A stretch of DNA of 41,231 nt from an uncultured Leptospirales bacterium (lineage in GTDB: Bacteria; Spirochaetota; UBA4802; UBA5550). Shown piece after piece: positions 1,091 through 39,725 of the stretch. The notes under the pieces are model-generated. The model was not told where the DNA came from. It did no database searches and saw only the letters and a list, made by a program, of their open reading frames with translations. The translations under genes were made by a program, and so were the position numbers. How positions within the stretch are numbered: position 1 is the first letter of the stretch; every line of letters starts with the position of its first letter. The stretch lies in assembly GCA_964625825.1 (NCBI GenBank), contig CAZVFJ010000003.1:1-41231 (forward strand), written 5' to 3'.

Positions 1091-1134
1091 TTTCCTGCCC
1101 GAAACCAACCTCCGGGCAGGAAATTTTTTATTTT
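1091..1134 (+). terminator. intrinsic terminator after hbd
   Basis: An 11-bp perfect stem, TTTCCTGCCCG (1091-1101) with CGGGCAGGAAA (1113-1123), is followed by TTTTTTATTTT. It overlaps the stop codon of the convergent gene. Confidence 0.8.
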
Positions 1135-3362
1135 AAAATTTCTCGTACCAGTTCCCTGTTAATATCTCCAATATTCCGGCATCCTGTTAGTATCATTGCC
1201 TTTCTTAACTCTTCTCTTATATTATTCATGTAGAAGGTTGTACCTTCTGACTTCATGCCAACAGCCGCTATGGCAACGGGACGACCAATAAGGATGTAAT
1301 CAGCTCCGAGAGCCATTGCCTTGATAATATCAACGCCATCTCTGAATCCGCCATCGACCATGATTTTGATGGATTTTCCTACTGCTTTTACAATTTCATC
1401 AAGCACATCCATTGCCCCGGGCATCTGGTCCAGAACCCTTCCCCCGTGATTGGATACGATTATTGCGTCAGCGCCGGCCCTGACCGCCATCTCCGCGTCG
1501 TAGGGATTCATTATGCCTTTGAGTATAAACGGAAGTGTTGCAGCTGACTTGATTTCTTTCAGTTCATCAACACTTTTAGACCCGACCTCCTGATTTTTCA
1601 TTGCCATGGTTTTAAATACAATCGCATCTATATCTATACCGACAGCAATTGCTCCTGCTTTCTCGGCAGCTTTTATTCTCATTATTATTTCTTTGTTATC
1701 TTTTCTTGGTTTGAAAATCGGTATTCCCCATCCGCCTTCATCTTTAACAGCCTGGAGGCCGATCTTATATTTATCCGGTGTTGCTCCGTCACCAACAAAG
1801 GCGATTGTGCCTGCGTTTTTGCAGCCTTTAACAACAGCTATATTATATTCAAGTTCATCAATGGCTCCACCCATGTTTGTGACAGATCCGGTAATCGGCG
1901 CTGCCATTACAGGGAGAGATATTTTTTTGCCGAAAATTTCAGTAGAGGTATCGGGCTCGATTGATTCATGAATCAATCGTGTTACTACTCTGTACCTTTT
2001 AAGGGACTCAACATTGCGCCTGAACGATTCACCTGTGCCTATACCACCCATACCGGGCACGCCCGTGGGGCAGTCTTTTCCGTCGCAGGTTTTGCAGACA
2101 TAGCATATTTTTTTGAATTTTTCCCGCGCAGCCGCATTTATAGCTTTGAGTGTGATCTCAGAATCGGTTGTCGTGTCGATCTTCAAAAGCTCTTTGCATT
2201 TTGCTATGGAAGCTTCAGCTTCGGCAAGGGTATCCCCCACTGCGATGATATTGCCCGATTTCTCCACATTTGATGTGGGCATCACAACTATGTCGCCTTC
2301 TTTGATATTCAGAAATATCGCCTCAATGCCGGGAACTTTAAGGGCCTCCTCGAGCCCCGATATTTTTTTAACAGTCCCTGGTTTGCATATAATTGCGCGC
2401 TCTATGGAGACGCGGTTGAATACCGGTTCCAGGTTGCCCGGCTCCTGCCCAAGAGCAACTTCTATCACCGCTTTCATGAGATCAACTCCGCTTGAGAGAG
2501 GATATGTGTAAGCAGACATAAATCCTCCTGAAAGACGTGCGGCAAGTTCGCCGATCATTGCACCCTTCTTAGTGACCTTGATATCCCCTTTCGCCGCGCC
2601 GATGGTAATACCGAGCGCCTTAATTCCCTGTTTCATAACATCGATAGCGTCTTTAAGATTCGACTCGGGGAGAGCTGACGGCATGTTGTGCCCCATCTCA
2701 ACGAAGTTAGGTGGAAGGTCAATGATCCTGTCCGCGACACCAGTGATTGTGATTTCACCGTTATATACTATGGCGTCTATAGAAAGCTCGGGTCCCTCCA
2801 TAAACTGTTCAATGATTAGATCTCCGCTGGGAGATGCGTTTTTTGAAAATTTAAAAGCGTCAGCTATCTGGGTGGCGTTTTCGATTTTTATAACACCCCT
2901 CGCTCCCATGTTGTCTGAAGGTTTTAAAACAAGGGGGAATCCCAGAATTTTGCATGCCTTCTTCGCGTCAGAAAGAGACCAGACAGGCAGAAATGCGGGA
3001 GATGGCACATTATTCTCTTTAAATCTCATCCTCATCTTTAGTTTATTGGTTGCAGCCTCGGCGTCTTCGAACCTGATGCCGGGAAGATTGAGGGCGTTTG
3101 CTACAGCAGCGACTGTCTGTGACGCATCAGTACCTACAGTGAGCACGCCGCTAATGGGGGTAATTTCATTTTGCTGCTTAGCTATTCTCACTGAACCCTG
3201 AATATCTCTTGTGCTCATGACAATCGGTATATCAGCATGCTTCATGCCGATTGCGTCGGCATTGTAATCTGTAACAATTACCTGATATCCCATTTTTTTT
3301 GCAGTATCTATGGCAGGAGTCTGGAGAAGGCCCCCCCCGATAATCATAATTGTCTTTTTCAC
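1128..3362 (-). CDS. fusion protein: N-terminal ATP-grasp ligase-like domain plus C-terminal FMN-dependent alpha-hydroxy-acid dehydrogenase/oxidase-like domain
   Basis: Single 744-aa ORF. Residues 1 to about 395 look ATP-grasp-like (IMIIGGGLLQ, FPLVLKPSDNMGARGV, IIEQFMEGPELSID). A Cys cluster CYVCKTCDGKDC sits at aa 420-431. The C-terminal half is TIM-barrel FMN dehydrogenase-like with IIVSNHGGRVLD and VDGGFRDGVDIIKAMALGAD. Confidence 0.75.
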   Translation of the reverse strand: MKKTIMIIGGGLLQTPAIDTAKKMGYQVIVTDYNADAIGMKHADIPIVMSTRDIQGSVRIAKQQNEITPISGVLTVGTDASQTVAAVANALNLPGIRFEDAEAATNKLKMRMRFKENNVPSPAFLPVWSLSDAKKACKILGFPLVLKPSDNMGARGVIKIENATQIADAFKFSKNASPSGDLIIEQFMEGPELSIDAIVYNGEITITGVADRIIDLPPNFVEMGHNMPSALPESNLKDAIDVMKQGIKALGITIGAAKGDIKVTKKGAMIGELAARLSGGFMSAYTYPLSSGVDLMKAVIEVALGQEPGNLEPVFNRVSIERAIICKPGTVKKISGLEEALKVPGIEAIFLNIKEGDIVVMPTSNVEKSGNIIAVGDTLAEAEASIAKCKELLKIDTTTDSEITLKAINAAAREKFKKICYVCKTCDGKDCPTGVPGMGGIGTGESFRRNVESLKRYRVVTRLIHESIEPDTSTEIFGKKISLPVMAAPITGSVTNMGGAIDELEYNIAVVKGCKNAGTIAFVGDGATPDKYKIGLQAVKDEGGWGIPIFKPRKDNKEIIMRIKAAEKAGAIAVGIDIDAIVFKTMAMKNQEVGSKSVDELKEIKSAATLPFILKGIMNPYDAEMAVRAGADAIIVSNHGGRVLDQMPGAMDVLDEIVKAVGKSIKIMVDGGFRDGVDIIKAMALGADYILIGRPVAIAAVGMKSEGTTFYMNNIREELRKAMILTGCRNIGDINRELVREILK

Positions 3363-9522: not shown

Positions 9523-10425
9523 TCATTCCTCTGAAAAGAAAAGATTTATATAGGATTTTAGCGACTGGATATATTCAAGTTTAATCTGAGATTCAACAGC
9601 CCAGGATGAATCAGCATAAAGCCGAAGTGCGTGCCTGAAATACTGTTCCGCGTCAATGAGGTCCGGGGCTATCCTTTTTCGGTCTATGTATCCCCTGTTG
9701 TGCCTGTCAAAAAAAAGTTCTTTCTGCGCCCTGTGGAGAAAATCATCCCCTTTTCTATAAAGCCTATAGGCATCAACTTCGTAACGGTCATTATATGAAT
9801 CGATAATATTTACACACTCCGAAGCCCTGTAAAAGTCAAAAATTAGTTTACCGAAAACATTGAAATGATCAAGTAGTTCACGGTCATCCGTAAGTTGAGA
9901 AAGCTTTTTTAAAGCATGGTAAGCCCTTCGGAGAGAGAGAGTCACGCCGTCATAAATTTTTCTGTTGCCGTGCTCATCTCTTCTGTGAAAATTATATAAA
10001 GAATATTGAAAGTACCGGTACATCGCGTCTTTCGCAGATTCTTTTGCCTGTACAAATTTATTAATAAGATATTCACGCCTTGCCTCATCACGCAGGCCGC
10101 GTAGTTCTTCCTCTCTGGCTTTTTTCAGCGCGGCATCTCTTGCAGCAGCCGCAGCCTTTTTCAGGCTCTCCTGCTCATCAACTTCATCGGCCGCTTCGGC
10201 CTCTTTAAAACGGTAACTCATCAGCGTTGAGTAGGCAGTATTAAGAATGGTCATCTGCTCGTTGGCCCATTCTCTTTTGTCAGGATTTTTATCAGGATGG
10301 TACTTCATGGCCATTGCCCTGAAGGATCGCGTTACCTCCTCATCTGATGAGTTATTTGTAACGCTTAGAATATTATAGCACCTGTTGATGTCCATCTGTT
10401 CCGTTTTAAAATGAAAGTAATTCAT
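9523..10425 (-). CDS. J-domain (DnaJ-like) protein with an uncharacterised C-terminal region
   Basis: N-terminal J-domain CYNILSVTNNSSDEEVTRSFRAMAMKYHPDKNPD carries the HPD tripeptide. It is followed by a charged coiled region and about 170 aa that I do not recognise. No Gly/Phe or zinc-finger region of a true DnaJ is present. Confidence 0.75.
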   Translation of the reverse strand: MNYFHFKTEQMDINRCYNILSVTNNSSDEEVTRSFRAMAMKYHPDKNPDKREWANEQMTILNTAYSTLMSYRFKEAEAADEVDEQESLKKAAAAARDAALKKAREEELRGLRDEARREYLINKFVQAKESAKDAMYRYFQYSLYNFHRRDEHGNRKIYDGVTLSLRRAYHALKKLSQLTDDRELLDHFNVFGKLIFDFYRASECVNIIDSYNDRYEVDAYRLYRKGDDFLHRAQKELFFDRHNRGYIDRKRIAPDLIDAEQYFRHALRLYADSSWAVESQIKLEYIQSLKSYINLFFSEE

Positions 10426-11712: not shown

Positions 11713-12618
11713 ATGAAAAAGATAAGAATTGGCACAAGGGGGAGTGAACTGGCTCTCTGGCAGGCACATCATGTTGCCGGCCTCATTGGAACGGACCTCA
11801 CTGAACTTGTAATTATAAAGACAGAGGGTGACCGTATACAGAATTTTTCCTTTAACAAGATGGAAGGGAAGGGTTTTTTTACAAAAGAGATCGAAGAAGC
11901 TCTTCTTGAAAATAGAATTGATCTGGCAGTACACTCTCTCAAAGATCTTCCAACCGAGGATATCGAGGGCCTCAGGCTTGCTGCTATTCCGGTTCGTGCG
12001 GATTTTCATGATCTCCTTATTATGCAGGGCGATATTTATGAAAATAACGGCATTCTTAATATTAAAAGTGGCGCTCTTGTTGGGACAAGTTCCATGAGGA
12101 GAATGGCGCAGCTGAAGTCAATTGACCCGTCTCTCAGGGTGGAAGCTCTCCGTGGCAATGTAAACACAAGGCTCACTAAACTTAAAGGGCGTGAATATGA
12201 TGCGATAGTCATGGCAAAGGCGGCTGCCGAGAGAATTTCGCTCGACCTCTCCGGGTTTGTAGTCTATGAACTGGATGAAAGGATATTTTTGCCTGCTCCG
12301 GCCCAGGGTGCTCTCGGGCTTCAGATAAGGGCTGATGATGCATACACGGCCTCTATTGTGGAAAAGCTTACTCATGAAAATACAGAAAGAGTCGTAAGAG
12401 CAGAGCGCGCATTTCTGAAATGTTTTGGCGGAGGATGCCATGTTCCTCTTGGCGCTCTTGCGGAACTTGACGGTGAAGATATTCTTCTGAGAGGAGTGGT
12501 TGCTTCACCGGATGGAACTTTTGTGGCACGGGAATTCGCGACCGGCACAGACCCGGAAGCTGTGGGGGCGGAACTTGCCCGTTTGATCAAACTGAAAGGG
12601 GCTGACAAATATATATGA
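11713..12618 (+). CDS. hemC: hydroxymethylbilane synthase (porphobilinogen deaminase)
   Basis: IRIGTRGSELALWQA at the N-terminus. The dipyrromethane-cofactor Cys context GGCHVPLGA is present. Confidence 0.9.
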   Translation: MKKIRIGTRGSELALWQAHHVAGLIGTDLTELVIIKTEGDRIQNFSFNKMEGKGFFTKEIEEALLENRIDLAVHSLKDLPTEDIEGLRLAAIPVRADFHDLLIMQGDIYENNGILNIKSGALVGTSSMRRMAQLKSIDPSLRVEALRGNVNTRLTKLKGREYDAIVMAKAAAERISLDLSGFVVYELDERIFLPAPAQGALGLQIRADDAYTASIVEKLTHENTERVVRAERAFLKCFGGGCHVPLGALAELDGEDILLRGVVASPDGTFVAREFATGTDPEAVGAELARLIKLKGADKYI

Positions 12619-14105
12619 AAAATAAAGGATTCGTTTATCTTGTAGGAGCGGGGCCCGGAGACCCGGAACTTATTTCTGTAAAAGGAATGAGGGTACTTCG
12701 TGAGGCGGATTGTATAATATACGATTATCTGGCAGAGAAGAGTCTCCTGACCGGCTTGAAATGTGAGCTGATATACGTAGGGAAGCAGGGGAGTGACCAC
12801 ACTCTGAAGCAGGAAGAGATAAACAGCCTTATTGTGCAAAAAGCGGGTGAAGGCAAAACAATTGTCCGTCTTAAAGGGGGAGACCCGTTCATTTTCGGGC
12901 GCGGAGGCGAGGAGGCCGAGGAGCTCGTTGAGGCCGGGATTCCATTTGCTGTTATCCCGGGAATTTCATCTTTTTATTCAGCCCCGGCATACGCGGGTAT
13001 TCCACTAACACACAGGGATTTTTCCAGCGCTTTTGAAGTCGTGAGCGGGCACCGGAGGTCGGACACTGACAATACAGAGGATGTCAACTTCCCTGAGTAT
13101 GATCCTGAAAAAACATTCGTGTTTCTCATGGGAATGAAAAATCTTTCCCATATAAGGGAGAAACTTATAATTGAAAAAAATTTTCCTTCGGATATCCCGG
13201 TAGGAATAGTAACATGGGGTACAAGGCCGGAACAGCGGGTAGTGACGGCGCCTCTTTCTCGAATTACGGAGGAGATTGAAAGGGCTGGTCTTAAACCGCC
13301 GGCGATAATTATTATGGGGGGAGTTGTGTCGCTCCGGGAAAAGCTCCGCTGGTTCGATAACCAGCCGTTATTCGGCAAAAGAATTGTTGTTACCCGTACA
13401 AGGGAGCAGGCCTCAAGGCTCACCGGGAAGCTTGTGGCAATGGGGGCGAGGGTAATTGAATTTCCCACAATAGAAATTAAAAAAGAAGATGATCTGTCCG
13501 GGCTTCATAAAAGCTTCGGGAATCTCCATGAATATAATTGGATTATATTTACGTCACAGAATGCCGTGAATATTTTTTTTGATGAACTTTACAGTTCCGG
13601 GCGTGATGTGCGTTCACTCGGCACTGTGAGGATAGCTGTAATCGGCAAAGCGTCAGGTGATGAACTTAAAAAGTACGGGCTTATCCCTGATCTTGTCCCC
13701 GAAAAATTTGTAGCTGAATCACTCCTTGAAGAGATGGCTAAGCACGACATGAAGGGAAAGCGCGTGCTTATACCCTGTTCAGCAGGCGCGCGCATGCTCC
13801 TCCTGGAAGGGCTCATGGAACTCGGGGCTCACGTTGACAGGATTCATATTTACAGCGCGTCAAAACCGGAATTTATTGACGATAAACTTATTGAAGATGT
13901 AAAAAAAGCAGATATAGTAACATTCACAAGTTCTTCAACAGTAACAAATTTTTTTGATATAATACCGGAAATCGACGTACCGGTCGCAAGTATCGGGCCG
14001 ATAACAACTGAAACGCTTGTAAAGAAGGGGTACATCCCGGCTGTAACCGCCGGGGAGTACACAATCGACGGGCTGGTGAAAGCGCTTCTGGAGTATTACT
14101 CATAA
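12615..14105 (+). CDS. cobA/hemD: bifunctional uroporphyrinogen-III C-methyltransferase / uroporphyrinogen-III synthase
   Basis: N-terminal SUMT motifs VYLVGAGPGDPELISVKG and RLKGGDPFIFGRGGEE. The C-terminal half is HemD-like (RIVVTRTREQASRLTGKL...IFTSQNAV). The ATG overlaps the hemC stop (ATGA). Confidence 0.85.
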   Translation: MKNKGFVYLVGAGPGDPELISVKGMRVLREADCIIYDYLAEKSLLTGLKCELIYVGKQGSDHTLKQEEINSLIVQKAGEGKTIVRLKGGDPFIFGRGGEEAEELVEAGIPFAVIPGISSFYSAPAYAGIPLTHRDFSSAFEVVSGHRRSDTDNTEDVNFPEYDPEKTFVFLMGMKNLSHIREKLIIEKNFPSDIPVGIVTWGTRPEQRVVTAPLSRITEEIERAGLKPPAIIIMGGVVSLREKLRWFDNQPLFGKRIVVTRTREQASRLTGKLVAMGARVIEFPTIEIKKEDDLSGLHKSFGNLHEYNWIIFTSQNAVNIFFDELYSSGRDVRSLGTVRIAVIGKASGDELKKYGLIPDLVPEKFVAESLLEEMAKHDMKGKRVLIPCSAGARMLLLEGLMELGAHVDRIHIYSASKPEFIDDKLIEDVKKADIVTFTSSSTVTNFFDIIPEIDVPVASIGPITTETLVKKGYIPAVTAGEYTIDGLVKALLEYYS

Positions 14106-30995: not shown

Positions 30996-31484
30996 CTAAA
31001 GCTTGCAGTTCAACTTCCCCATTTCAATAGCGTGCAGTCTTGCTTCTTTTCTCTGCTGAGCTTCGCAGTTTCTTCTCTTCTCATCATCTGTTTCAGGAAT
31101 AATTTGAGGTATCTTTCTCGGTTTTAAATTTTCATCAAGAGAAACGAATGTCATGTATGCTGACCCGGTATGACGAATTTCTCCAGTTACGACATTCTCA
31201 CTTTCAACGCGTACTCCTATTTCCATGGACTTTGTTCCTACAAAATTCACGCTGGCGATGACCCTGAGAAGATCTCCCACAAATACCGGATAGTGGAAGT
31301 CGAGCCTGTCAATAGAAGCTGTTACCACATTTCCCCCTGTATGCCTGACGCCGACAATGCCGGCCGTGTTATCTATAAGCTTCATAATAGTTCCGCCATG
31401 AACATTTCCCGCGAGGTTTGCGTCCTGCGGCATCATCTGCTGAACTACTGTAATGCTGCTTTCTTTTACTGTTTTACTTTCCAT
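30996..31484 (-). CDS. acyl-CoA thioesterase (hotdog fold, YciA/acyl-CoA hydrolase type)
   Basis: MPQDANLAGNVHGGTIMKLIDNTAGI is the family signature. GGAGG lies 8 nt upstream of the ATG. Confidence 0.85.
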   Translation of the reverse strand: MESKTVKESSITVVQQMMPQDANLAGNVHGGTIMKLIDNTAGIVGVRHTGGNVVTASIDRLDFHYPVFVGDLLRVIASVNFVGTKSMEIGVRVESENVVTGEIRHTGSAYMTFVSLDENLKPRKIPQIIPETDDEKRRNCEAQQRKEARLHAIEMGKLNCKL

Positions 31485-31532
31485 AATAATTTCCTCCGCA
31501 ATAATTAACTGTGATGAGCAGGATGTCTCGAA

Positions 31533-31570
31533 AACATTAGAATTTTAATTTTATATAAAATTCTAATGTT
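31533..31570. repeat. 15-bp perfect inverted repeat; candidate terminator of the A2M cluster or operator of the thioesterase gene
   Basis: AACATTAGAATTTTA (31533-31547), an 8-nt spacer, then TAAAATTCTAATGTT (31556-31570). It lies about 50-85 nt upstream of the thioesterase ATG and about 175 nt downstream of the penicillin-binding-fold module. Confidence 0.6.
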
Positions 31571-31743
31571 TAATAATATTTAGAGTTTTAGGAAGTGTCA
31601 AATTTTTTGATAAATTATTTAAGTTTTATTAATTAAGGTGTTTCTGGGGAAAAATTTTATATTTTATTTTTAAAAATTAATTGGTCCTGGAGTTGCTGAA
31701 AATTTTTGGCAATTTAATAGAATGTGAAGATGAATGTATGTTA

Positions 31744-32510
31744 TTATTGATAAATTTCTTTTTTTAAAAGCATGGCAGATATGTGAGCTGCGTCCGTCCC
31801 TTTTCCTTTTCTGACCAGGGTTATTATTCCTGTATCTCCCGATCCTCCAGTAAATATACCGTAAGAGAAATGTGAATTTGTCCCGGAGATTACTGTACCT
31901 GTCTTTCCCCAGATGCCGGATGGCAAAACTCTCAGTGATGGATTTTTAATAAGATCTTTTTCTGTTATCTTCGCGGTACCATTCAGAAATGTTTTATGAA
32001 GGGCCTCTGATATTACCTCCATCGCCTCTGACGGTATTCTGTTACTTCTATGCATGTTGTGAATATACATGGATATTTTAATTAAATCTCTGATGGAGAT
32101 ATCTATTCTGAAGTCAAGTCCTGGAAGAATTTCACACCACTCCTTTTCGTCTTTAATATGCCGTTTTCTTCTGTAAAATTTCTGAACCATCTTTTAAAAT
32201 CATCGCGGTCAATTTTATCGTGAAGAGATGCGAAGTAGAGATTGCATGAATTATATATTGCGCTGCTTATATTCATCTCGCCGTGACCTTTTTTTTCCCA
32301 GCAATACTCCGGCAAAGGAAAATTATTATGTATGCCGCATGTAAATTTATAATTAAAGAAAAGGTCTCTTCTTTCCTGTGCGAGGTAGAAAACTGTAAAA
32401 AGTTTAAACAGGGAACCGCATGGAATTCTTCTCTCCAGTAAACCGGGACCGGTTGATGTATACCGGATGTCACCATTATCTATGTTACATATTGAAAGGT
32501 CTGACTTTTT
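31744..32510 (-). pseudogene. penicillin-binding (transpeptidase/beta-lactamase-fold) module, split over three reading frames with no start codon or signal peptide of its own
   Basis: All three PBP motifs occur in order but in shifted frames. GSLFK (SxxK, 32403-32414) and NSCNLYF (SxN, 32241-32249) lie in the frame of ORF 32103..32315; that frame is open upstream to 32510 without ATG, GTG or TTG. GKTGT (KTG, 31897-31905) lies in ORF 31744..32190. Each downstream frame is -1 relative to the preceding one. Confidence 0.7.
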
Positions 32511-33697
32511 TCATCAGATGTAATATATTTTAAATTTGGGTAGTAGTGTTCCAGAATTTCGTATCGGGAGTAACCCTTAGATGCGAGCTCAATGGCTCCA
32601 TCTAAACTCATCCCTGTACAGTGCCCAAGCCCTGAACCTGTAAATATAAAAGTTATACCATCTCTGCGAATGGAGTAATTATTACTTTTAATGAAGTTCC
32701 AACCCTTTTTCCTGTTTATTTTTAAACGGAAATCCTCCGGAGCGATTATATTTTCGCCACTGTCAGTTTGAATAAATATAATTTCATTTTCAGTATTAAA
32801 TTTTATATCACGAAGAGTTTCTCTCCCGCCAGAAAAAATTAAGGCTGATAGTTCATCTGTTGCGATCCTCGCTTCCCATGTTGTATGAAGGGTTCGGCTC
32901 AACTTCAGATTTTCGGAATAAAGTATATCAACAGGGGGCTTGATTTTTCTCACTCCGGAGTTGAATACAGATTCAGAGAAGAGTTTTCCTCCGCTTGATG
33001 AATGAAAGAAGAGGCCGCAGTTAAGGTTTTTTATATCTATAAAGGGTCCGCTTATCGGATTCAGTCCGCTTCTTCCTTGATATGACTGGCAACAAGTGAG
33101 GTCGCAGAAGTCGCAATCTTTATGCTTTTTTTTTAGAGATTCTATTCGGCACCTTCCATGTATTGCAAGTGCAAGAGCGTAGAGTGCCTCGTGGTTTTTT
33201 TTATCCAGGTATCCGAATTCAGCACATGATGAATCGATAGCATATTGTTCAATATTCTCTGTTATATATATTTTAAGCGAGTTATTATAATGAATTAATT
33301 CAAGAGGGAGAGGATATGTTCTCTTATTTCCTTTAATTTCTGTCCGGAAAGAACCGTCTGTTGTGCTGGAATAAATAATACAATTTTTGAAATATAGCGG
33401 GCGGTTTTTTGCAGATATATTATAATGTCCGCCGGAATATATGATTTTAAGAGAAGAAGTATATAACTCCGAATCATCATACCTTATCACTGTACCGGAA
33501 GGGAACGTGAAGTTGAGCTCTCCTGCCCCGATATCACTCATCCGGCGCAGATGTTTTGAAAGAATATTTATTTTTATCGAACCGGTTTTTGTGTTCTGGG
33601 AGAATGTCTCCGTCCCTTGTGGGATAAGGGTAATTATTACTGTGATGATGAGGGGGATGAAAATCCCCCTCATGAAATTTTTAATCATTATTGACAT
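32480..33697 (-). CDS. SpoIID/LytB-domain protein (lytic-transglycosylase-type fold), membrane-anchored or secreted
   Basis: N-terminal hydrophobic segment IFIPLIITVIITLIP. SpoIID hallmarks: EALYALALAIHGRCRI, DFCDLTCCQSYQG, FFHSSSGGKLFSE, and GSGLGHCTGMSLDGAIELASKGYSRYEILEHYYPN. The start is uncertain (ATG at 33697, 33688 or 33673) and overlaps or abuts the A2M stop at 33681. Confidence 0.8.
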   Translation of the reverse strand: MSIMIKNFMRGIFIPLIITVIITLIPQGTETFSQNTKTGSIKINILSKHLRRMSDIGAGELNFTFPSGTVIRYDDSELYTSSLKIIYSGGHYNISAKNRPLYFKNCIIYSSTTDGSFRTEIKGNKRTYPLPLELIHYNNSLKIYITENIEQYAIDSSCAEFGYLDKKNHEALYALALAIHGRCRIESLKKKHKDCDFCDLTCCQSYQGRSGLNPISGPFIDIKNLNCGLFFHSSSGGKLFSESVFNSGVRKIKPPVDILYSENLKLSRTLHTTWEARIATDELSALIFSGGRETLRDIKFNTENEIIFIQTDSGENIIAPEDFRLKINRKKGWNFIKSNNYSIRRDGITFIFTGSGLGHCTGMSLDGAIELASKGYSRYEILEHYYPNLKYITSDEKSQTFQYVT

Positions 33698-36600
33698 CAA
33701 TTATCGCGGGCTGGCTCCATCCCTGGATTGAGTCCTCATACATGCAGCTTATTCTTGATGGCCTCATTATGAAACTCCCCGGAAGTTCGGCGCGTATTGT
33801 GTATGCAACCTCGTACTCTTTCCCTTTTTCAACATCAGTGAAAAAGAAAACCATCCGGTTGTCGCGCTTCTCAACGTGTGAGTACGGCTGGAATTCGTTG
33901 TATGCAGACTCGTTAACCACTTCAAATCCTGAAGGGAGAAAATCTTCAAGTATCAAAAACCCGAAACTGTCATCCGCCCTGAACTTAACGCGGACAAGGA
34001 GTTCATCCCCGACAGATATTTTCCCCTTTTCATCTGCGCTTTGTGGTACAAGGTATTCCTGCATCTTAATGTCCTTGATTCTGTTGAGGTAGAACATGTC
34101 TCTCCTCGCCGTGATTCCGTTTGAGAGTGAACGTATACTCCTTTTTTCTGATTTGATGAACGCGAAGAGCCCCTGCGGCTTGAAGTAGAGAGTGCCGCTG
34201 ACAGCCGCAGAGAATACAGATCCATCAGGAAGGTCTCCGTCAGCTTTCAGTTTATATGAATTATTTTTACTGTCACGTGAAAGAGAAAATGTTTTTGAAA
34301 GCTGGTCCAGATTTCTGTTCGCTTTGAGGTTATATGAAATATCGCCAAGCTTATTTCCATTCAGTGAAAATTTTGTTTTTCCCTCGGTGCTGAATTCTGT
34401 GCTTCTCCCTTTCAGATAGTCGCATAACGCCAGGATTATTGTGCCGCTTTCCTTTGTTGAGCTCCAGCATTCGCCGTTAAAGCTCCGGGCCAGCGCCCCA
34501 ACAGCCTGCGGTGCAAGGTCGGAGGTGTCTCCCGCAAGGGTAAGCGCGGAGAGGACATGGGCAGTAATCTCACTCCTTCCTCCGGGCCATAACCATTTCT
34601 GTTCCCTGGTTTCAGGCCAGTATATTCCAGCTGAATCTTTCCTGGCATTCCGGGATATTTTATTTTTTAGAATTCCGGTTGCCTCTGAAATTTCACGGAC
34701 TTCATAATCAGGGAGTTTATCCGCTCCCGAAAAAACTGAAACTGCCTTGAGAAGATTTGCAGCCTGGTATGAATTTATCTTTTCATCAAAAGCGATCCGT
34801 TTGAATGAAGCGTGCTCCCATCTCTGGTAGAGCGCGTTAATGTACACAAGGTAAGAAAGCTCATCATTGTTACTCTTCCCCTGATCTTCAAAGAATCTTG
34901 CAACTGCCGCAAGCCCCTGTTCCATAGTGCCGGCATTTACACCGTAACCGTTTTCTTTCAGGTAAAAAAGCGAGAAGAGCGCATAGCCTGTCAGGTACCC
35001 GTTACCCCTGTCTCCGTCCCACCAGCCCCATGTGCCGTCATAATTCTGTCCTGCTTCAATTTTTTTAATACCCTCCGGGATGTCATTTTTAATATCAGCC
35101 TTAAGCTTATCAGGGATAAAGTCAGAGTATTCCTTATTTTTGAGAAGAGCAAGTACCGCCAGTTTCGGGATAAACCTGTTTATTGTCTGTTCTATGCATC
35201 CGTACGGGTAGTCGTTGAGATATTCAGCGGCTTTGATCATCTGAAGTACGGGTGATGGTGTGAGAGTGACTGTAACCTCTTCCGGGACAAACTCAAAGTC
35301 TTCGGTCCCTTTTACAGGTTTGATTTCGATCTCTCCTCCTGTGGCTGCATTGCCTGAACCCGTGATGACGTATTTAATTCCTCTCTTTTCAACAGGGATA
35401 GTATGTTTAACAGTATCTCCCTTTTTGTCTTTTGTTAGGGCGGAATATTCAAGTGATATTAAATCCTTTCCCTCCGGTATATCCAGAGTATAAAATTTTC
35501 TCGTGGAGCCGTACCCTGTGAGACTCACAGGAAAATCTTTGTCAGGAGCAATACTTTTCCCGTCAGCCTTAAGCTCGGTGGTAATTTTTTCTATTCCTGA
35601 ATCTGTATTGTTATTTATTATCCCGATAATTCCGGCTCTGTCCCCTTCAATAAGAAACCTGGGTTTACCTATGCGGGCGATAAGGTCCTGCGTTGAGATA
35701 AATTTTTTCCTTGCCTCACCCATGCGTCCTGCGAGATCGTGGCCCCGCGCGGTGAGCCTCCATGTTGTGAGGTTGTCGGGAACCCTGAACGAGATCTCCG
35801 CTTCGCCATTTCTGTCAGTCTTAATCCCCGCCTCCCAGAATGCTGTGTCTTTAAAATCCTCCCTTACTTTCACCTGGGCATCCTTTCCTGCGCCAGCGAG
35901 CAAAGTAATAGGGTAGGAGTAAGTTGTGAGTACCCAGTTGGAAATTTTTGAGTAGAAATATCCGGAAATTTCAGGAGTCCTGTCTGAACGTACCATGAAG
36001 ATCGATTCGTCAACAGCAGCAAGAGAAATGTCAGCCGAAACAGGTGTGCCTTTAAGATCCCCGGCTTTCACCTTTATTTTGACAGTATCTCCGGGTGAAT
36101 ACTTCTCTTTGTCGGGAGTAAGTATCAGATTAAGCCTTACATCGTCTACAGGGAGAGTTACTTCTTTTTCCGCAATATGGAGGGCTCTGCCACGCTGCAT
36201 CGCGCATCGGACAAAGAGGTTCGGGGCGAGCTTTGTGTCTATGTTAAATTTTACAGGAATGATGTTTTTTGTCATCTTTATTACCTGGTATTCGTAAACA
36301 TCTCTGCCTTCCAGGGTAACGAGAACATAGGAATCAGTGAATCTGCTTTTTATCAGACATGTTATTTCACCGGCTTTGTCGAGTTCAGTTTTATTTACAG
36401 TAAGTTCCAGGTCTTTCAGCTTTGAGTCGGCATTTCCGCCTGCGTCGTTGTATATCCAGATTATCTTTGAACCTGTAATTACGTTGCCCCTGCTGTCTTT
36501 TCCTGACGCGGTGAGATCAAACTCCCCATATGCGGTAAAGTCGGAGGGGAGAGTGATTACAGTTTTTCCGGCTGAGTCAGTTGTTACTTTTCGTGTGAAG

Positions 36601-39047
36601 TACGGCCTGCTGTCATGAATGTAAACTCTCTGTACCGGCTTCCAGATATACTTCAGAAGATTTAATTCAATGGCTGTGCTCACAGGTTCTCCTGAATGTG
36701 TCAGGGCAGTGACTGTAACTCTCTTCTCACTCTTCGCGCCGAAAAAGTTTTCTTCCGGAGAGAGCTTTATGAAAAATTCACCGCGGCCTATTTTTACTGT
36801 TTTCTGCGATGTTATTGTTATGTTTGATTTGTCTGTAACAGTTGCTTCAAGTACAAGTTCTCTATCATAGGGATAGTTCCCTGAAGCGATCTTGAGGAGG
36901 GCTGTGCCGCCTGAATCTGTATACTTTTCACCTTCAAGCTTTAGCCTTGAGTATGATGAGCCTGAGCCGTATTCATCAGCCATAGGGTCTTCGTCAGTTG
37001 TAATATTTTTTTCGTAGAACCTGTATTTAACAAGCGCATTTGCCAACGGCGCGCCGAAGAAGTATTTTGATTCAATCTTAAACTCGGCCATTTCGCCATT
37101 TATAAAGAAATCCTTCGAGGGGAGTATCTCCACTTTAAATTCAGGTTTCCTGTACTGCTCAATATAGAAGGAGCCCGTACCGTACATGTCATCCTTTTTA
37201 AATCCCGCCCTGATTGTGAAATATCCGAGTTCGGCATCTGCCGGAATATCCGCGTTTCCGTGAACTGTGCCCCAGCCATCCAGTTCCATTGCTCCGGAAG
37301 CAATAACTTTTCCAGAGTATGATTTCTGTATGGAGTAGAAGAGTGTTCTGTTTTTTATCGGAGAGAATTTATCTTCCATTTTTTTAGCGAGAATTTTAAA
37401 AAAGACCTTGTCCCCTGTACGGTAAACCGGCCTGTCTGTATAAATGAAGAGTTTGTCCTTCTCACTCCTGTAGTAGTTTGATGCTCCGGCGCTGCATATG
37501 GCATAACTACCTTCGTCAGAGACAGCAAGAAGGAACATCTTATCGTCTGACTTTACAGAAGTTTGAAAGATCCCGTTATTACCTGTTCTGCCCTGCGCAA
37601 GAATTTTTACCGGGAGTTTTTCGATATCGATGCCCTCATTTTCATTAAGGGTTTTCTCTCCGGCTGTCTTCTTGAAATTGTGGTCATAGATTGCAACAGA
37701 TACATTTTTTGCCGGCATGTTTTGAACAAGGTCTGTTATATAGGCGCTTACGTTTTCCGGGGAGCGTTTTACAACAACACCAAGATTTGTAACAGTGAAA
37801 AATTTGCGTGAGAGAATATCCCCTTTCCCTTTAACTTCGATACAGTATCCCCCGGATGATAGAGGCTTGTTGATTTTCACAGAAAAGTACATCCATTCGT
37901 AAGGATTGAAGTCTTTTACAGATTCGTCCCATTCAGTTACAGTTTTGAATCCTGAATTATCCGGTGTCAGTAACTCCGGGTCCCGGTTCTTCGCGAGAAA
38001 AATTTCAAATGGAACTTTGTAGACCTTCACGTGAACTGAATCAAGTCGAAGAGTGCGAAGATTAAAGTCCACCTCGTTTCCTGGAGTGAATGTATACCTG
38101 TAAGAGTGTATATTTATCTCAGGAGATTTTGCCTCCATATTATAATTCAGGTTGGCGAGATTCCGGCCTTCGTTAACCCTGATGTTTTTCATTTTAATTC
38201 CCTGAAATCCCTGGTGCGACAGGGTCAGGGAGTAGTTCCCCGGTTTTACATCTTCAAGTATGAATGAACCATCACGGTATGTTACATTAGAGTAACTGTA
38301 TCTTCCCTCTGCCGTGACATTGATATTCACTGCCGGAGAGTTGAGCCCTTTTATCTCAACTTTACCTGATAGTGTGGCCGGCCTGTACATAACCATTTGC
38401 AGCCTGAAGTTCTCCGCTGCCTTTATGCCTGATAGTGATGCTGTCTCTGTAATGAATCCATTCCTGGAAAATGTTACGAGGTATGGCCCGGCTTTTAGCT
38501 TTTTGAAACTGTAATTTCCTTTACTATCGCTTCTGGTGAAAACAGGTTTTGCGCTGTCATTGCCGTTCTCTCCTTCGTAATAGCCATAAGAGGTTTTTAG
38601 GGAGATCTCCACATCAGTAATAGCTTTGCCGGAACTGTCTTTTACATTACCGGATATTATAGATTCTTTTGTCAGTTTGATGTCATTTTTAACCGAGGAT
38701 ATGCTTGATGTTTCAATATATGAAACATATCCGTCAGCTGATATTTCAATGTCGTATTTTATATACGGGATGAAGTCATTGATCCTGTAATAACCTTTCC
38801 AGTCGGTTTTTGTTTTATAGTACCCGACACCTCTGTTCGCATTTTTTATTTCCACTACCGCACCCTTTACAGGCTTCCCTGTTCCGGAGTCTGTGATGGT
38901 CCCTTCAATATATGCCTTCTGTTCAAGTTCTGAGTGTATTTTATAGGCGGTACCTTCATCGGAGTTTACAACCTCCGGCATGGCATCTGTTAAAAATATG
39001 ACGGAGAGCATCACGGTGCATAGACCCGCAATCCATGATTTTTTCAT
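33681..39047 (-). CDS. alpha-2-macroglobulin family protein, thioester-containing, secreted
   Basis: 1788 aa. Signal peptide MKKSWIAGLCTVMLSVIFLTDA. Three N-terminal CarboxypepD_reg-like repeats (GTITDSGTGKPVKGAVVEI..., ISGNVKDSSGKAITDVEISL..., LSGKVEIKGLNSPAVNINV...). A long array of MG-like beta-sandwich sequence follows. The thioester motif YPYGCIEQ has CIEQ at 35187-35198 (Cys 1284). Confidence 0.85.
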   Translation of the reverse strand: MKKSWIAGLCTVMLSVIFLTDAMPEVVNSDEGTAYKIHSELEQKAYIEGTITDSGTGKPVKGAVVEIKNANRGVGYYKTKTDWKGYYRINDFIPYIKYDIEISADGYVSYIETSSISSVKNDIKLTKESIISGNVKDSSGKAITDVEISLKTSYGYYEGENGNDSAKPVFTRSDSKGNYSFKKLKAGPYLVTFSRNGFITETASLSGIKAAENFRLQMVMYRPATLSGKVEIKGLNSPAVNINVTAEGRYSYSNVTYRDGSFILEDVKPGNYSLTLSHQGFQGIKMKNIRVNEGRNLANLNYNMEAKSPEINIHSYRYTFTPGNEVDFNLRTLRLDSVHVKVYKVPFEIFLAKNRDPELLTPDNSGFKTVTEWDESVKDFNPYEWMYFSVKINKPLSSGGYCIEVKGKGDILSRKFFTVTNLGVVVKRSPENVSAYITDLVQNMPAKNVSVAIYDHNFKKTAGEKTLNENEGIDIEKLPVKILAQGRTGNNGIFQTSVKSDDKMFLLAVSDEGSYAICSAGASNYYRSEKDKLFIYTDRPVYRTGDKVFFKILAKKMEDKFSPIKNRTLFYSIQKSYSGKVIASGAMELDGWGTVHGNADIPADAELGYFTIRAGFKKDDMYGTGSFYIEQYRKPEFKVEILPSKDFFINGEMAEFKIESKYFFGAPLANALVKYRFYEKNITTDEDPMADEYGSGSSYSRLKLEGEKYTDSGGTALLKIASGNYPYDRELVLEATVTDKSNITITSQKTVKIGRGEFFIKLSPEENFFGAKSEKRVTVTALTHSGEPVSTAIELNLLKYIWKPVQRVYIHDSRPYFTRKVTTDSAGKTVITLPSDFTAYGEFDLTASGKDSRGNVITGSKIIWIYNDAGGNADSKLKDLELTVNKTELDKAGEITCLIKSRFTDSYVLVTLEGRDVYEYQVIKMTKNIIPVKFNIDTKLAPNLFVRCAMQRGRALHIAEKEVTLPVDDVRLNLILTPDKEKYSPGDTVKIKVKAGDLKGTPVSADISLAAVDESIFMVRSDRTPEISGYFYSKISNWVLTTYSYPITLLAGAGKDAQVKVREDFKDTAFWEAGIKTDRNGEAEISFRVPDNLTTWRLTARGHDLAGRMGEARKKFISTQDLIARIGKPRFLIEGDRAGIIGIINNNTDSGIEKITTELKADGKSIAPDKDFPVSLTGYGSTRKFYTLDIPEGKDLISLEYSALTKDKKGDTVKHTIPVEKRGIKYVITGSGNAATGGEIEIKPVKGTEDFEFVPEEVTVTLTPSPVLQMIKAAEYLNDYPYGCIEQTINRFIPKLAVLALLKNKEYSDFIPDKLKADIKNDIPEGIKKIEAGQNYDGTWGWWDGDRGNGYLTGYALFSLFYLKENGYGVNAGTMEQGLAAVARFFEDQGKSNNDELSYLVYINALYQRWEHASFKRIAFDEKINSYQAANLLKAVSVFSGADKLPDYEVREISEATGILKNKISRNARKDSAGIYWPETREQKWLWPGGRSEITAHVLSALTLAGDTSDLAPQAVGALARSFNGECWSSTKESGTIILALCDYLKGRSTEFSTEGKTKFSLNGNKLGDISYNLKANRNLDQLSKTFSLSRDSKNNSYKLKADGDLPDGSVFSAAVSGTLYFKPQGLFAFIKSEKRSIRSLSNGITARRDMFYLNRIKDIKMQEYLVPQSADEKGKISVGDELLVRVKFRADDSFGFLILEDFLPSGFEVVNESAYNEFQPYSHVEKRDNRMVFFFTDVEKGKEYEVAYTIRAELPGSFIMRPSRISCMYEDSIQGWSQPAIIDVNND

Positions 39048-39649
39048 TTTTTATCCTCCCTGATTGTCACTGCCCTGAAACGGCTTATCCGGCAGTTTGT
39101 ATAATTATTATTTCTGTTTAACCTGCTGGTCGTTCTGAATTCAGCCGGGACAACAACAATCCCGGAGGTACTGTCACATTCAATAAATACTCCGAAATGG
39201 CTTATGTCAATACTATTTAGATTTTCTACCTGCTCAGGGTGTGACGCGATTGTAATGACAATATCCATTTCCTCAATCTCATATCGTTCCAGTGGCTTAT
39301 ACCTGGGATCATAAGAGAGAGCCCCTTTCAAATAATTCCTGAGCATAAGGGATATGTCTGTTTCGCTGTGGTCGAAAGCGCCGAAGCAACCGCGAATTTT
39401 TCCTTTTTGTATAAGGGTGATAAAGAGCCCTGTGCTGCCGTAAACAGGGGGGAGTGTTATATTAAGGGATTTCAACTCCCGCTCTTTCATTTCTATTGAG
39501 AGAGCAGTATATTTCATCCATTTCATTAAAATCGTTTTATCAGCGGATACTGAAAACTTCTCCCACTGGCGGAGAGGGTCTGTGCTGTTCCAGAAACAGA
39601 GGGTAAGGATAATAAAAACCGGTACTGTTTTACACAGAAATTTTTTCAT
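39044..39649 (-). CDS. AMMECR1-domain protein with N-terminal signal/lipoprotein-like sequence
   Basis: MKKFLCKTVPVFIILTLCFWNS is an export signal with a possible atypical lipobox LTL-C. AMMECR1 hallmarks: GLFITLIQKGKIRGCFGAF, DPRYKPLERYEIEEMDIVITIAS, ISHFGVFIE and SGIVVVPAE. The stop overlaps the A2M ATG (ATGA), with AGGGAGGA inside its 3' end. The ORF-track TTG start at 39667 is possible. Confidence 0.7.
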   Translation of the reverse strand: MKKFLCKTVPVFIILTLCFWNSTDPLRQWEKFSVSADKTILMKWMKYTALSIEMKERELKSLNITLPPVYGSTGLFITLIQKGKIRGCFGAFDHSETDISLMLRNYLKGALSYDPRYKPLERYEIEEMDIVITIASHPEQVENLNSIDISHFGVFIECDSTSGIVVVPAEFRTTSRLNRNNNYTNCRISRFRAVTIREDKK

Positions 39650-39725
39650 AAGTATAATATATTTCAAGCTGGAGTTTAGTCTATAAAATAATCAGCGGAC
39701 AGGCCTGTGCTTTAAGAATGCAGAT

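Follow-up and report, generated by a model that had tools for sequence, protein, structure and literature searches.

A Type I α2-macroglobulin (A2M) gene, yfhM (encoding ECAM), forms an operon with pbpC (encoding PBP1C) in Escherichia coli and Salmonella (Budd et al. 2004, referred to in PMC4498604 and PMC5764988). The locus described here resembles that operon in that the gene directly after a thioester A2M gene encodes a bifunctional, membrane-anchored peptidoglycan enzyme with a C-terminal transpeptidase (TP), and the proposed logic, a protease trap joined to cell-wall repair, is alike. However, the N-terminal module of the second protein is SpoIID/LytB-like, unlike the GT51 glycan polymerase of PBP1C; the TP is of a compact class-B type; the two modules are split, and stand in the opposite order, in other phyla; and the TP half is dead in the window, i.e. 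the whole stretch of 41,231 nucleotides that was analysed, from a metagenomic contig of an uncultured Leptospirales bacterium (GCA_964625825.1, CAZVFJ010000003.1).

Each half of the fusion has relatives among well-known families. Over about 225-290 residues, the N-terminal module is similar in profile and in fold to SpoIID/LytB proteins (PF08486, TIGR02669; structures 4RWR, 5I1T and 5TXU): the KH..FCDL(T)[CH]CQ motif of the fusion family aligns with the KHK..C.DYKHCQ of SpoIID, and a C-terminal block, G.GHG.G.S..GA...A..GY.Y.EIL.HYY, is common to both, whereas the hosts of the fusion are non-sporulating (Spirochaetota), and two parts are peculiar to it, a further β-rich stretch of about 100 aa at the N-terminus and the fused TP domain. 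The closest solved structures to the TP module are class B PBPs (PF00905), such as PBP3 (7RD0) and SpoVD (7RCZ) of C. difficile and PBP2 and PBP3 of P. aeruginosa, with which it has the SxxK, SxN and KTG motifs in common; in contrast to these, the fusion has no pedestal/dimerisation domain, its place being taken by the SpoIID-like domain, and the copy in the window is not translatable. The lesions of this copy resemble those of pseudogenes formed by slipped-strand deletion, which have deletions of 3n+1 nt, flanking repeats of 2-6 nt, an early stop and a remnant beyond it; the stop in the window differs from the ordinary case in falling exactly at a domain boundary and leaving the whole upstream domain, and nothing else about it is unusual.

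The window was examined for the layout of this gene and its neighbours (Table 1). In the surviving SpoIID-like ORF, a hydrophobic N-terminal anchor precedes a SpoIID/LytB-like domain that is complete. As an earlier note on this DNA had it, the coding sequence runs through three frames: the TP lies beyond the TAG stop, in two frames, with no signal sequence and no ATG, GTG or TTG ahead of SxxK (the earliest start is a TTG at 32315), so that the TP cannot be translated in the window as one polypeptide with an export signal.

Table 1. Features of the A2M/SpoIID-TP locus in the window
Feature	Coordinates	Strand	Remarks
Type I A2M gene (CIEQ thioester)	33681..39047	minus	1788 aa; the first of the two genes
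SpoIID-like ORF, surviving	32480..33697	minus	405 aa from ATG 33697, 406 aa from TTG 33700; stop TAG 32482..32480
RNA hairpin, G/C-rich, 11-bp stem	33648..33673	minus	8 nt past the A2M stop codon, within SpoIID-TP codons 9-17
A6 tract	32506..32511	minus	frameshift site in the earlier note; by alignment not the lesion
Deletion junction 1 (ACATA/GAT)	32478..32485	minus	7 nt missing relative to relatives; codon-level comparison with L001, L006, L007 and L009
TP segment 1	32158..32480	minus	first -1 frame (open 32510..32103); SxxK (SLFK, 32414..32403) and SxN (SCN, 32249..32241); without its own start codon
Deletion junction 2 (GGC ATA/TT AAA)	32152..32162	minus	19 nt missing relative to relatives; break at about 32158/32157
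TP segment 2	31744..32157	minus	second -1 frame (open 32193..31744); KTG (KTGT, 31905..31894) and native C-terminus; stop 31746..31744

The SpoIID-TP gene shares its first 17 nt with the end of the A2M gene and occupies the slot directly downstream of a Type I A2M that pbpC holds in E. coli; the comparison with PBP1C drawn in the earlier note fits this position. The A2M translation contains the CxEQ thioester motif (...YGCIEQT...) and the Pfam domains MG2, bMG3, A2M_BRD, A2M, TED_complement and bMG10, so that the bait region, MG domains and TED of a Type I A2M are all present, and its identity to the A2M that precedes the intact fusion in loci L001 and L005-L009 is 76-79%. The position of the hairpin at the start of the SpoIID-TP gene is conserved in the closest orthologous loci, and the hairpin may modulate expression inside the A2M/SpoIID-TP operon. 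A scan of positions 31400-33800 for promoters and terminators found sites no more numerous than in shuffled sequence.

The identity of the N-terminal module was established with the family profile, which matched the SpoIID structures 5i1t (E=2e-12), 5txu (1e-11) and 4rwr (7e-8) in the PDB, and with an AF2 model of the orthologue P0004 (pLDDT 87.8), for which Foldseek returned 5i1t_A with a target-normalised TM score of 0.61 over 288 columns; TIGR02669 matched P0004 in part (2e-12). These family-profile and structure searches were needed because the window ORF alone scores only 14.3 bits against PF08486 (E=0.068), below the cut-off of 23, and thus Pfam on this ORF does not establish a SpoIID domain. 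The KH..C.D..HCQ motif aligns with 5i1t, and residues E161 (in AELG/AEFG; E160 in P0004), H193, C199, D200, C204 and Q205 are invariant or nearly so in the family and are kept in the window. E161 is a candidate counterpart of the catalytic glutamate of SpoIID, at a position outside the alignments returned, and the His/Cys motif is a putative metal site. The module has a lytic-transglycosylase fold, and a glycan-cleaving activity is predicted for it; no match to GT51 or another transglycosylase was found in it by Pfam, NCBIfam and PDB searches. The TP domain, compact at about 250 aa, matches PF00905 at 27.7 bits (cut-off 22.1), and Foldseek with the P0004 model returned class B PBPs at a probability of 1.0. 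Its SxxK, SxN and KTG motifs stand in order, do not vary among 33 homologues and can be read in the shifted frames of the window.

The comparison with orthologous loci that the earlier note had proposed was carried out, and its idea of an ancestral single exported SpoIID-TP fusion was upheld: an unbroken single-frame SpoIID-TP ORF of 640-730 aa is present in each of the 47 fused loci, which come from the genomes of 46 distinct species, uncultured Spirochaetota and Smithella/Syntrophaceae. A search with the repaired window protein found 98 other proteins, of which the majority are 640-730 aa long and span more than 90% of the query, and the repaired protein is 55-61% identical to the fused subfamily over 95-100% of its length. 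Of the 43 fused loci with a long enough upstream flank, 38, L001 among them, have a Type I A2M gene directly upstream. A second fusion that seemed broken (P0088, locus L083) was rejected, its break being an N10 scaffold gap with no frameshift. In WOR-3, Cloacimonadota, Myxococcota and other MAGs, separate genes for a TP (about 300 aa) and a SpoIID-like protein (about 340-400 aa) are found beside A2M, always with the TP gene first (20/20 split loci); the repaired window protein is about 25-30% identical to these. L054, the only split locus read from end to end, has overlapping TP and SpoIID-like genes, both with a start codon and a hydrophobic N-terminus of their own. The order SpoIID then TP as separate genes was found in no locus examined.

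The lesions had been taken for two -1 changes, the first of them at the A6 tract. Comparison with the relatives indicates instead multi-base deletions, since the window lacks exactly two residues at one junction and six at the other, and each lesion is therefore of 3n+1 nt (7 and 19 nt). The A6 run lies where the earlier note placed it, but the first frame change does not: the SpoIID frame reads ...SDEKSQTFQYVT up to its stop and aligns with ...SFQYVTYN... or ...SQSFQYVTFD... in 33/33 full-length homologues. The zero frame thus stays homologous for eight codons beyond A6, and the true junction lies at the TAG, 25-30 nt farther on; the alternative frame, KKSDLSICN, matches nothing in the homologue alignment. 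At the first junction, the relatives read ACA TA[C AAC ATA] GAT, the bracketed 7 nt being the part lost in the window; their ACATAC-A-ACATAC is the sort of direct repeat at which a deletion by slippage would be expected, and the deletion lies between the ACATA repeats. It takes out a Tyr-Asn/Phe-Asp pair that no homologue lacks and gives rise to the TAG stop, and the resulting 2-residue gap is unique to the window in a protein alignment of 33 full-length homologues. The second change does fall within the interval 32133-32170 that had been given for it, as a deletion of 19 nt. The relatives read GGN ATA [TCC ATG CGT CTC CCT GCT A]TT AAA, the bracketed 19 nt being lost in the window, with AT/ATA microhomology at the junction. 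Six residues (S-M-R-L-P-E-like) are removed, among them a Pro conserved in more than 90% of homologues; the segment is kept in all 33 aligned homologues except P0057, where three residues are missing at the downstream edge.

Apart from these two deletions, no further decay was detectable in the TP remnant. The N-terminal part of the window protein retains all 42 family-invariant residues, and the shifted TP part retains 37/37 family-invariant and 58/60 highly conserved residues, with no in-frame stops. The ratio of C-terminal to N-terminal identity to relatives is 1.00 for the window, and 1.02±0.05 for intact pairs. The conserved residues of the remnant and this normal ratio imply that inactivation was recent; with a nearest relative of no more than about 60% identity, divergence of a few per cent after the deletions would escape notice, and the 37 retained invariant residues bound amino-acid change since inactivation to roughly 8% at most. 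Two independent deletions without detectable substitutions are a somewhat unusual combination.

The best explanation of the locus is a very recent inactivation of the TP half that leaves a SpoIID-only product (probability about 0.7), which was also the best supported of the options offered earlier. The ancestral protein would have been a periplasmic peptidoglycan enzyme made up of an N-terminal membrane anchor, the SpoIID/LytB-like domain and the compact class-B-type TP, with its gene co-transcribed with the Type I A2M gene. Two independent small deletions would then have disabled the TP half, the one between the ACATA repeats placing a TAG at the domain boundary and the other falling within the TP domain. 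The remaining product would be a 405-aa anchored SpoIID-like protein with all conserved residues present, and the TP coding sequence would be an untranslatable remnant that has so far accumulated no other damage. The stand-alone SpoIID-like genes of about 340-400 aa beside A2M in other phyla make a SpoIID-only product plausible, and the truncated protein may well be functional.

An artefact of assembly or consensus, in which the organism has an intact fusion and the deletions come from sequencing, from assembly or from a minority haplotype picked by the assembler, is considered unlikely, and it is the most serious alternative. The undecayed state of the TP remnant and the intactness of every fused relative would be expected of it. 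The window is a metagenomic contig for which neither reads nor a second contig of the same species were found: a search of JGI metagenome contigs with an exact pattern across the first junction (a gap of 0-10 nt being allowed) gave no matches, and nothing was on record in exact-protein look-ups of the SpoIID ORF and its two downstream neighbours. The gap in L083, moreover, means that artefactual breaks occur in records of the SpoIID-TP family. However, neither deletion is in a homopolymer, both are flanked by a direct repeat or microhomology typical of replication slippage, there are no Ns at either junction, and the probability that a second random error would fall within the same 0.74 kb is about 0.02. 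The remaining coding sequence, about 36.5 kb, is free of frame errors: 26 other long ORFs on the contig are open, their frames kept through 40 homopolymer runs of at least 7 nt and 107 of at least 6 nt, and 16 of 20 of these ORFs scanned with Pfam have matches, most of them end to end against the models. The intactness of these ORFs had been put forward against generalised homopolymer error. That argument is sound, yet it has no bearing on the two lesions, which both lie outside homopolymers. The deletions are thus probably biological.

Switching of expression, or programmed -1 frameshifting, at the A6 tract, where slippage at GAA AAA AGT would restore the fusion, is very improbable. The tract precedes the stop by 25 nt, and the open stretch of the -1 frame begins within it, but it is the zero frame (SQTFQYVT) and not the -1 frame (KSDLSICN) that is homologous, so that slippage there would yield a non-native linker, and a second frame break would still be met 350 nt downstream. 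The real junctions (ACA TAG/AT and ATA/TT AAA) have no X XXY YYZ heptamer, and a frameshift is needed in none of the 47 fused loci. A run of six A is short for transcriptional slippage, which also counts against switching. With the first shift located elsewhere, the homopolymer switching suggested earlier is unsupported. Equally far-fetched is a natural two-gene arrangement, for which the separate modules beside A2M in WOR-3, Cloacimonadota, Myxococcota and other MAGs would be the precedent, since those split loci have the reverse order throughout, the TP of the window has neither start nor signal sequence and is itself spread over two frames, and the repaired protein is far closer to the fused subfamily than to the split genes.

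Beyond the probable recent loss of the TP half, the locus draws attention to a conserved gene partnership with bacterial A2M that appears to be undescribed. The SpoIID-TP architecture is unnamed in Pfam and NCBIfam, no paper describing the family was found, and searches of the literature for SpoIID together with macroglobulin, or for SpoIID in spirochaetes, returned nothing relevant. It is tentatively proposed that the trio of A2M, SpoIID-like protein and compact TP may be an undescribed, phylum-spanning alternative to the A2M-PBP1C 'trap and repair' system, in which SpoIID and TP are fused in that order in Spirochaetota and Syntrophia but are separate genes, TP first, in WOR-3, Cloacimonadota and Myxococcota, and the SpoIID-like module would replace GT51; the window would then hold a natural TP-null allele in which the SpoIID-like half is kept without the TP.

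If the TP half was indeed recently inactivated, the frame breaks are routine gene decay, and they illustrate that a stop at a domain boundary can pass for the end of a gene and that the homopolymer nearest to a frame break is not necessarily the lesion. What matters more for the family is that A2M has been linked independently to a SpoIID-like enzyme and a TP, by fusion in some phyla and by tight adjacency in others. This linkage supports, from new lineages, the old hypothesis that bacterial A2Ms act with peptidoglycan enzymes, and it shows that the partner of A2M need not be PBP1C.

Joining the three frame pieces of the locus (the SpoIID-like ORF and two segments of a penicillin-binding transpeptidase, or TP, module) gave a query that matched 98 other proteins in a search of a 5.8-billion-protein collection, the majority of them 640-730 aa long with >90% query coverage and the top matches 54-60% identical to it. 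Scanning GTDB at one genome per species yielded 78 loci. At 47 of them (46 distinct, L001 and L005 being two records of the same protein) the modules are fused, and in each the entire protein is a single ORF in a single frame (0/47 interrupted); thus, the earlier note was right to propose an ancestral SpoIID-TP fusion. The hosts of the fused loci are uncultured Spirochaetota, many labelled Leptospirales, and Smithella/Syntrophaceae. Synteny between L001 and the window is full (GGDEF, AMMECR1, α2-macroglobulin (A2M), fusion, 4HBT thioesterase, 238-aa gene, valS, TetR). On a JGI contig (L083, protein P0088) a copy of the fusion gene is split at 1134-1143, but it was ruled out as a mutated gene because the break is a scaffolding gap of 10 Ns.

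The intact family is a membrane-anchored protein of two domains. Its profile matches solved SpoIID structures (5i1t, 2e-12) at positions 169-392 and PBP transpeptidase domains (7rd0, 8e-12) at positions 420-525, and a confident AlphaFold model of the orthologue P0004 (pLDDT 87.8, pTM 0.87) matches class B PBP transpeptidase domains (probability 1.0) and SpoIID 5i1t (TM 0.61) in Foldseek. The family motif KH..FCDLT[CH]CQ can be aligned with KHK..C.DYKHCQ of SpoIID. With Pfam, the SpoIID domain is weak on the window ORF alone (E=0.068), and the TP piece exceeds the PF00905 cut-off (27.7 vs 22.1 bits). Searches of Pfam and NCBIfam found no family specific to the SpoIID-TP architecture.

Features of the interrupted fusion gene and associated loci
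Feature	Position	Strand	Remarks
AMMECR1-family gene	39044..39667	minus	directly 5' of A2M, 4-nt overlap in the window
A2M gene	33681..39047	minus	
SpoIID-like ORF, 405/406 aa	ATG 33697 (or TTG 33700) to TAG 32482..32480	minus	hydrophobic N-terminus
G/C-rich hairpin	33648..33673	minus	first ~17 codons of SpoIID-TP gene, 6-12 nt past A2M stop in the window and closest species
A6 run	32511..32506	minus	
TP segment 1	open 32510 to 32103	minus	-1 frame vs SpoIID ORF; ...YNSCN... = SxN
SxxK of TP segment 1	32414..32403	minus	...RRIPCGSLFK...
TP segment 2	open 32193 to 31744	minus	further -1 frame; ...WGKTGT..., KTG 31905..31894
Split loci (examples)	L054 3211-9786		L052, L054, L055, L057, L062, L065, L075, L080, L082

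Translation confirmed the frames and motifs described previously, and the lack of a start codon or signal peptide for the TP module, the earliest candidate start in the frame of segment 1 being TTG 32315, 3' of the SxxK. The breaks were mapped by aligning the repaired protein with 33 homologues. The SpoIID frame is homologous through its final codon (the window has ...SDEKSQTFQYVT and stop where homologues have ...SQSFQYVTFD... and ...RSYQYVTYN..., and >90% of sequences keep the Tyr of QYV), and the -1 frame from the A6 tract (KKSDLSICN) has no match in homologues. This rules out the A6 tract as the lesion, and the earlier placement of the first break there, with its phase-switch mechanism, does not hold. 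At junction 1, two residues (YN/FD) present in every homologue are missing, and comparison of the DNA (window CAA TAT GTA ACA TA- GAT AAT; relatives CAA TAT GTT ACA TAC AAC ATA CAT AAC) identifies a deletion of 7 nt between ACATA(C) direct repeats that produces the TAG. The second shift lies within the interval proposed earlier, where six residues (S-M-R-L-P-E-like) are absent from the window, among them a Pro kept in >90% of homologues; all homologues retain this segment except P0057, which has a 3-residue gap at the downstream edge. Here the DNA (window GGC ATA/TT AAA GAC; relative GGG ATA TCC ATG CGT CTC CCT GCT ATA AAG) shows a 19-nt deletion at ~32158/32157. Two single-base -1 changes, as first supposed, would require two additional in-frame deletions at identical spots and were rejected.

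All 37 residues that are invariant in the family survive in the shifted part, as do 58 of the 60 highly conserved ones (59-60/60 in intact homologues); the deleted Pro is one of the two that are gone. When identity to relatives is compared between the shifted and N-terminal parts, the ratio is 1.00, vs 1.02±0.05 in intact pairs. Thus, the damage is confined to the two deletions, and the survival of the 37 invariant residues limits amino-acid change since inactivation to roughly 8% or less. Ordinary recent decay is favoured on these sequence grounds over assembly error, which is less likely: the remainder of the contig is clean, with 26 other long ORFs open (Pfam matches in 16/20 scanned, mostly end to end) and 107 homopolymer runs of at least 6 nt within them free of frame error; a second random lesion in the same 0.74 kb has a probability of ~0.02; and the deletions have sizes (7 and 19 nt) and repeat or microhomology flanks that point to real mutations. 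No further contig of the same organism was found in a JGI metagenome pattern scan or by exact-protein look-ups. A natural split is ruled out, since none of the loci surveyed has a SpoIID gene with a separate TP gene after it.

Among WOR-3, Cloacimonadota, Myxococcota and further MAGs the components are separate genes that run A2M, then TP (~300 aa), then SpoIID-like (~340 aa), the reverse of the domain order of the spirochaete fusion. At L054, the one split locus examined along its whole length, the genes overlap; TP (PF00905, 146 bits) and SpoIID-like (PF08486, 75 bits) each have their own start codon and hydrophobic N-terminus. A2M lies upstream in 15/20 split loci. The start of the window's fusion gene overlaps the last 17 nt of a gene for a Type I A2M with a CIEQ thioester, a bait region and a TED, and 38/43 fused loci whose upstream flank is long enough share this arrangement. 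That the modules are fused in one clade and encoded by neighbouring genes in another is classic evidence of functional coupling. Three N-terminal CarboxypepD_reg-like domains (residues ~40-300) precede the macroglobulin domains of the window A2M; the split-type A2M of L054 is without this extension.

The hairpin has a 9-11 bp stem, a 3-5 nt loop and an energy of about -19 kcal/mol. It recurs at the equivalent site in the six closest species (L001, ~10024-10047; L006, L007, L008, L009, L017) with partly different stem sequences, and in another clade (L010, L011, L013, L047) a hairpin of 16-18 bp lies 40 nt past the A2M stop. The hairpin could act on transcripts between A2M and the fusion gene, attenuating or stabilising them. 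The AMMECR1-family gene, also upstream of A2M in the two relatives compared (43% and 58% fusion-protein identity), L001 (2728-3333, 4303-4578) and L004 (3933-4448), may be part of the operon. Elsewhere in the window, a 744-aa protein (1128..3362, minus strand) has ATP-grasp/L-amino-acid-ligase domains and, at its C-terminus, an FMN-dependent dehydrogenase domain, an architecture that recurs near the A2M locus of a distant relative with a complete genome (L004, 21098-21989), and one 496-aa ORF (12615..14105), in a hemC / hemD-cobA / hemB / hemL-like cluster, joins TP_methylase (tetrapyrrole methylase) to uroporphyrinogen-III synthase (HemD).

The locus is neither PBP1C, which has a GT51 domain that is absent here, nor a sporulation SpoIID; the fusion takes the position of pbpC, the partner of Type I A2M, and would work like it. 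By analogy with the E. coli pair yfhM-pbpC (PMC4498604, PMC5764988), A2M and the fusion enzyme would act in the periplasm, A2M as a protease trap and the enzyme in peptidoglycan remodelling or repair; the remodelling module would be a glycan-cleaving, SpoIID-like domain in place of a GT51 polymerase. A literature search of incomplete coverage found no paper tying SpoIID-like proteins to A2M. The conserved A2M / SpoIID-like / TP module is of modest interest as a variation on a known operon type, of which the organism of the window would now translate the SpoIID-like half alone, the TP half probably being a fresh pseudogene remnant.
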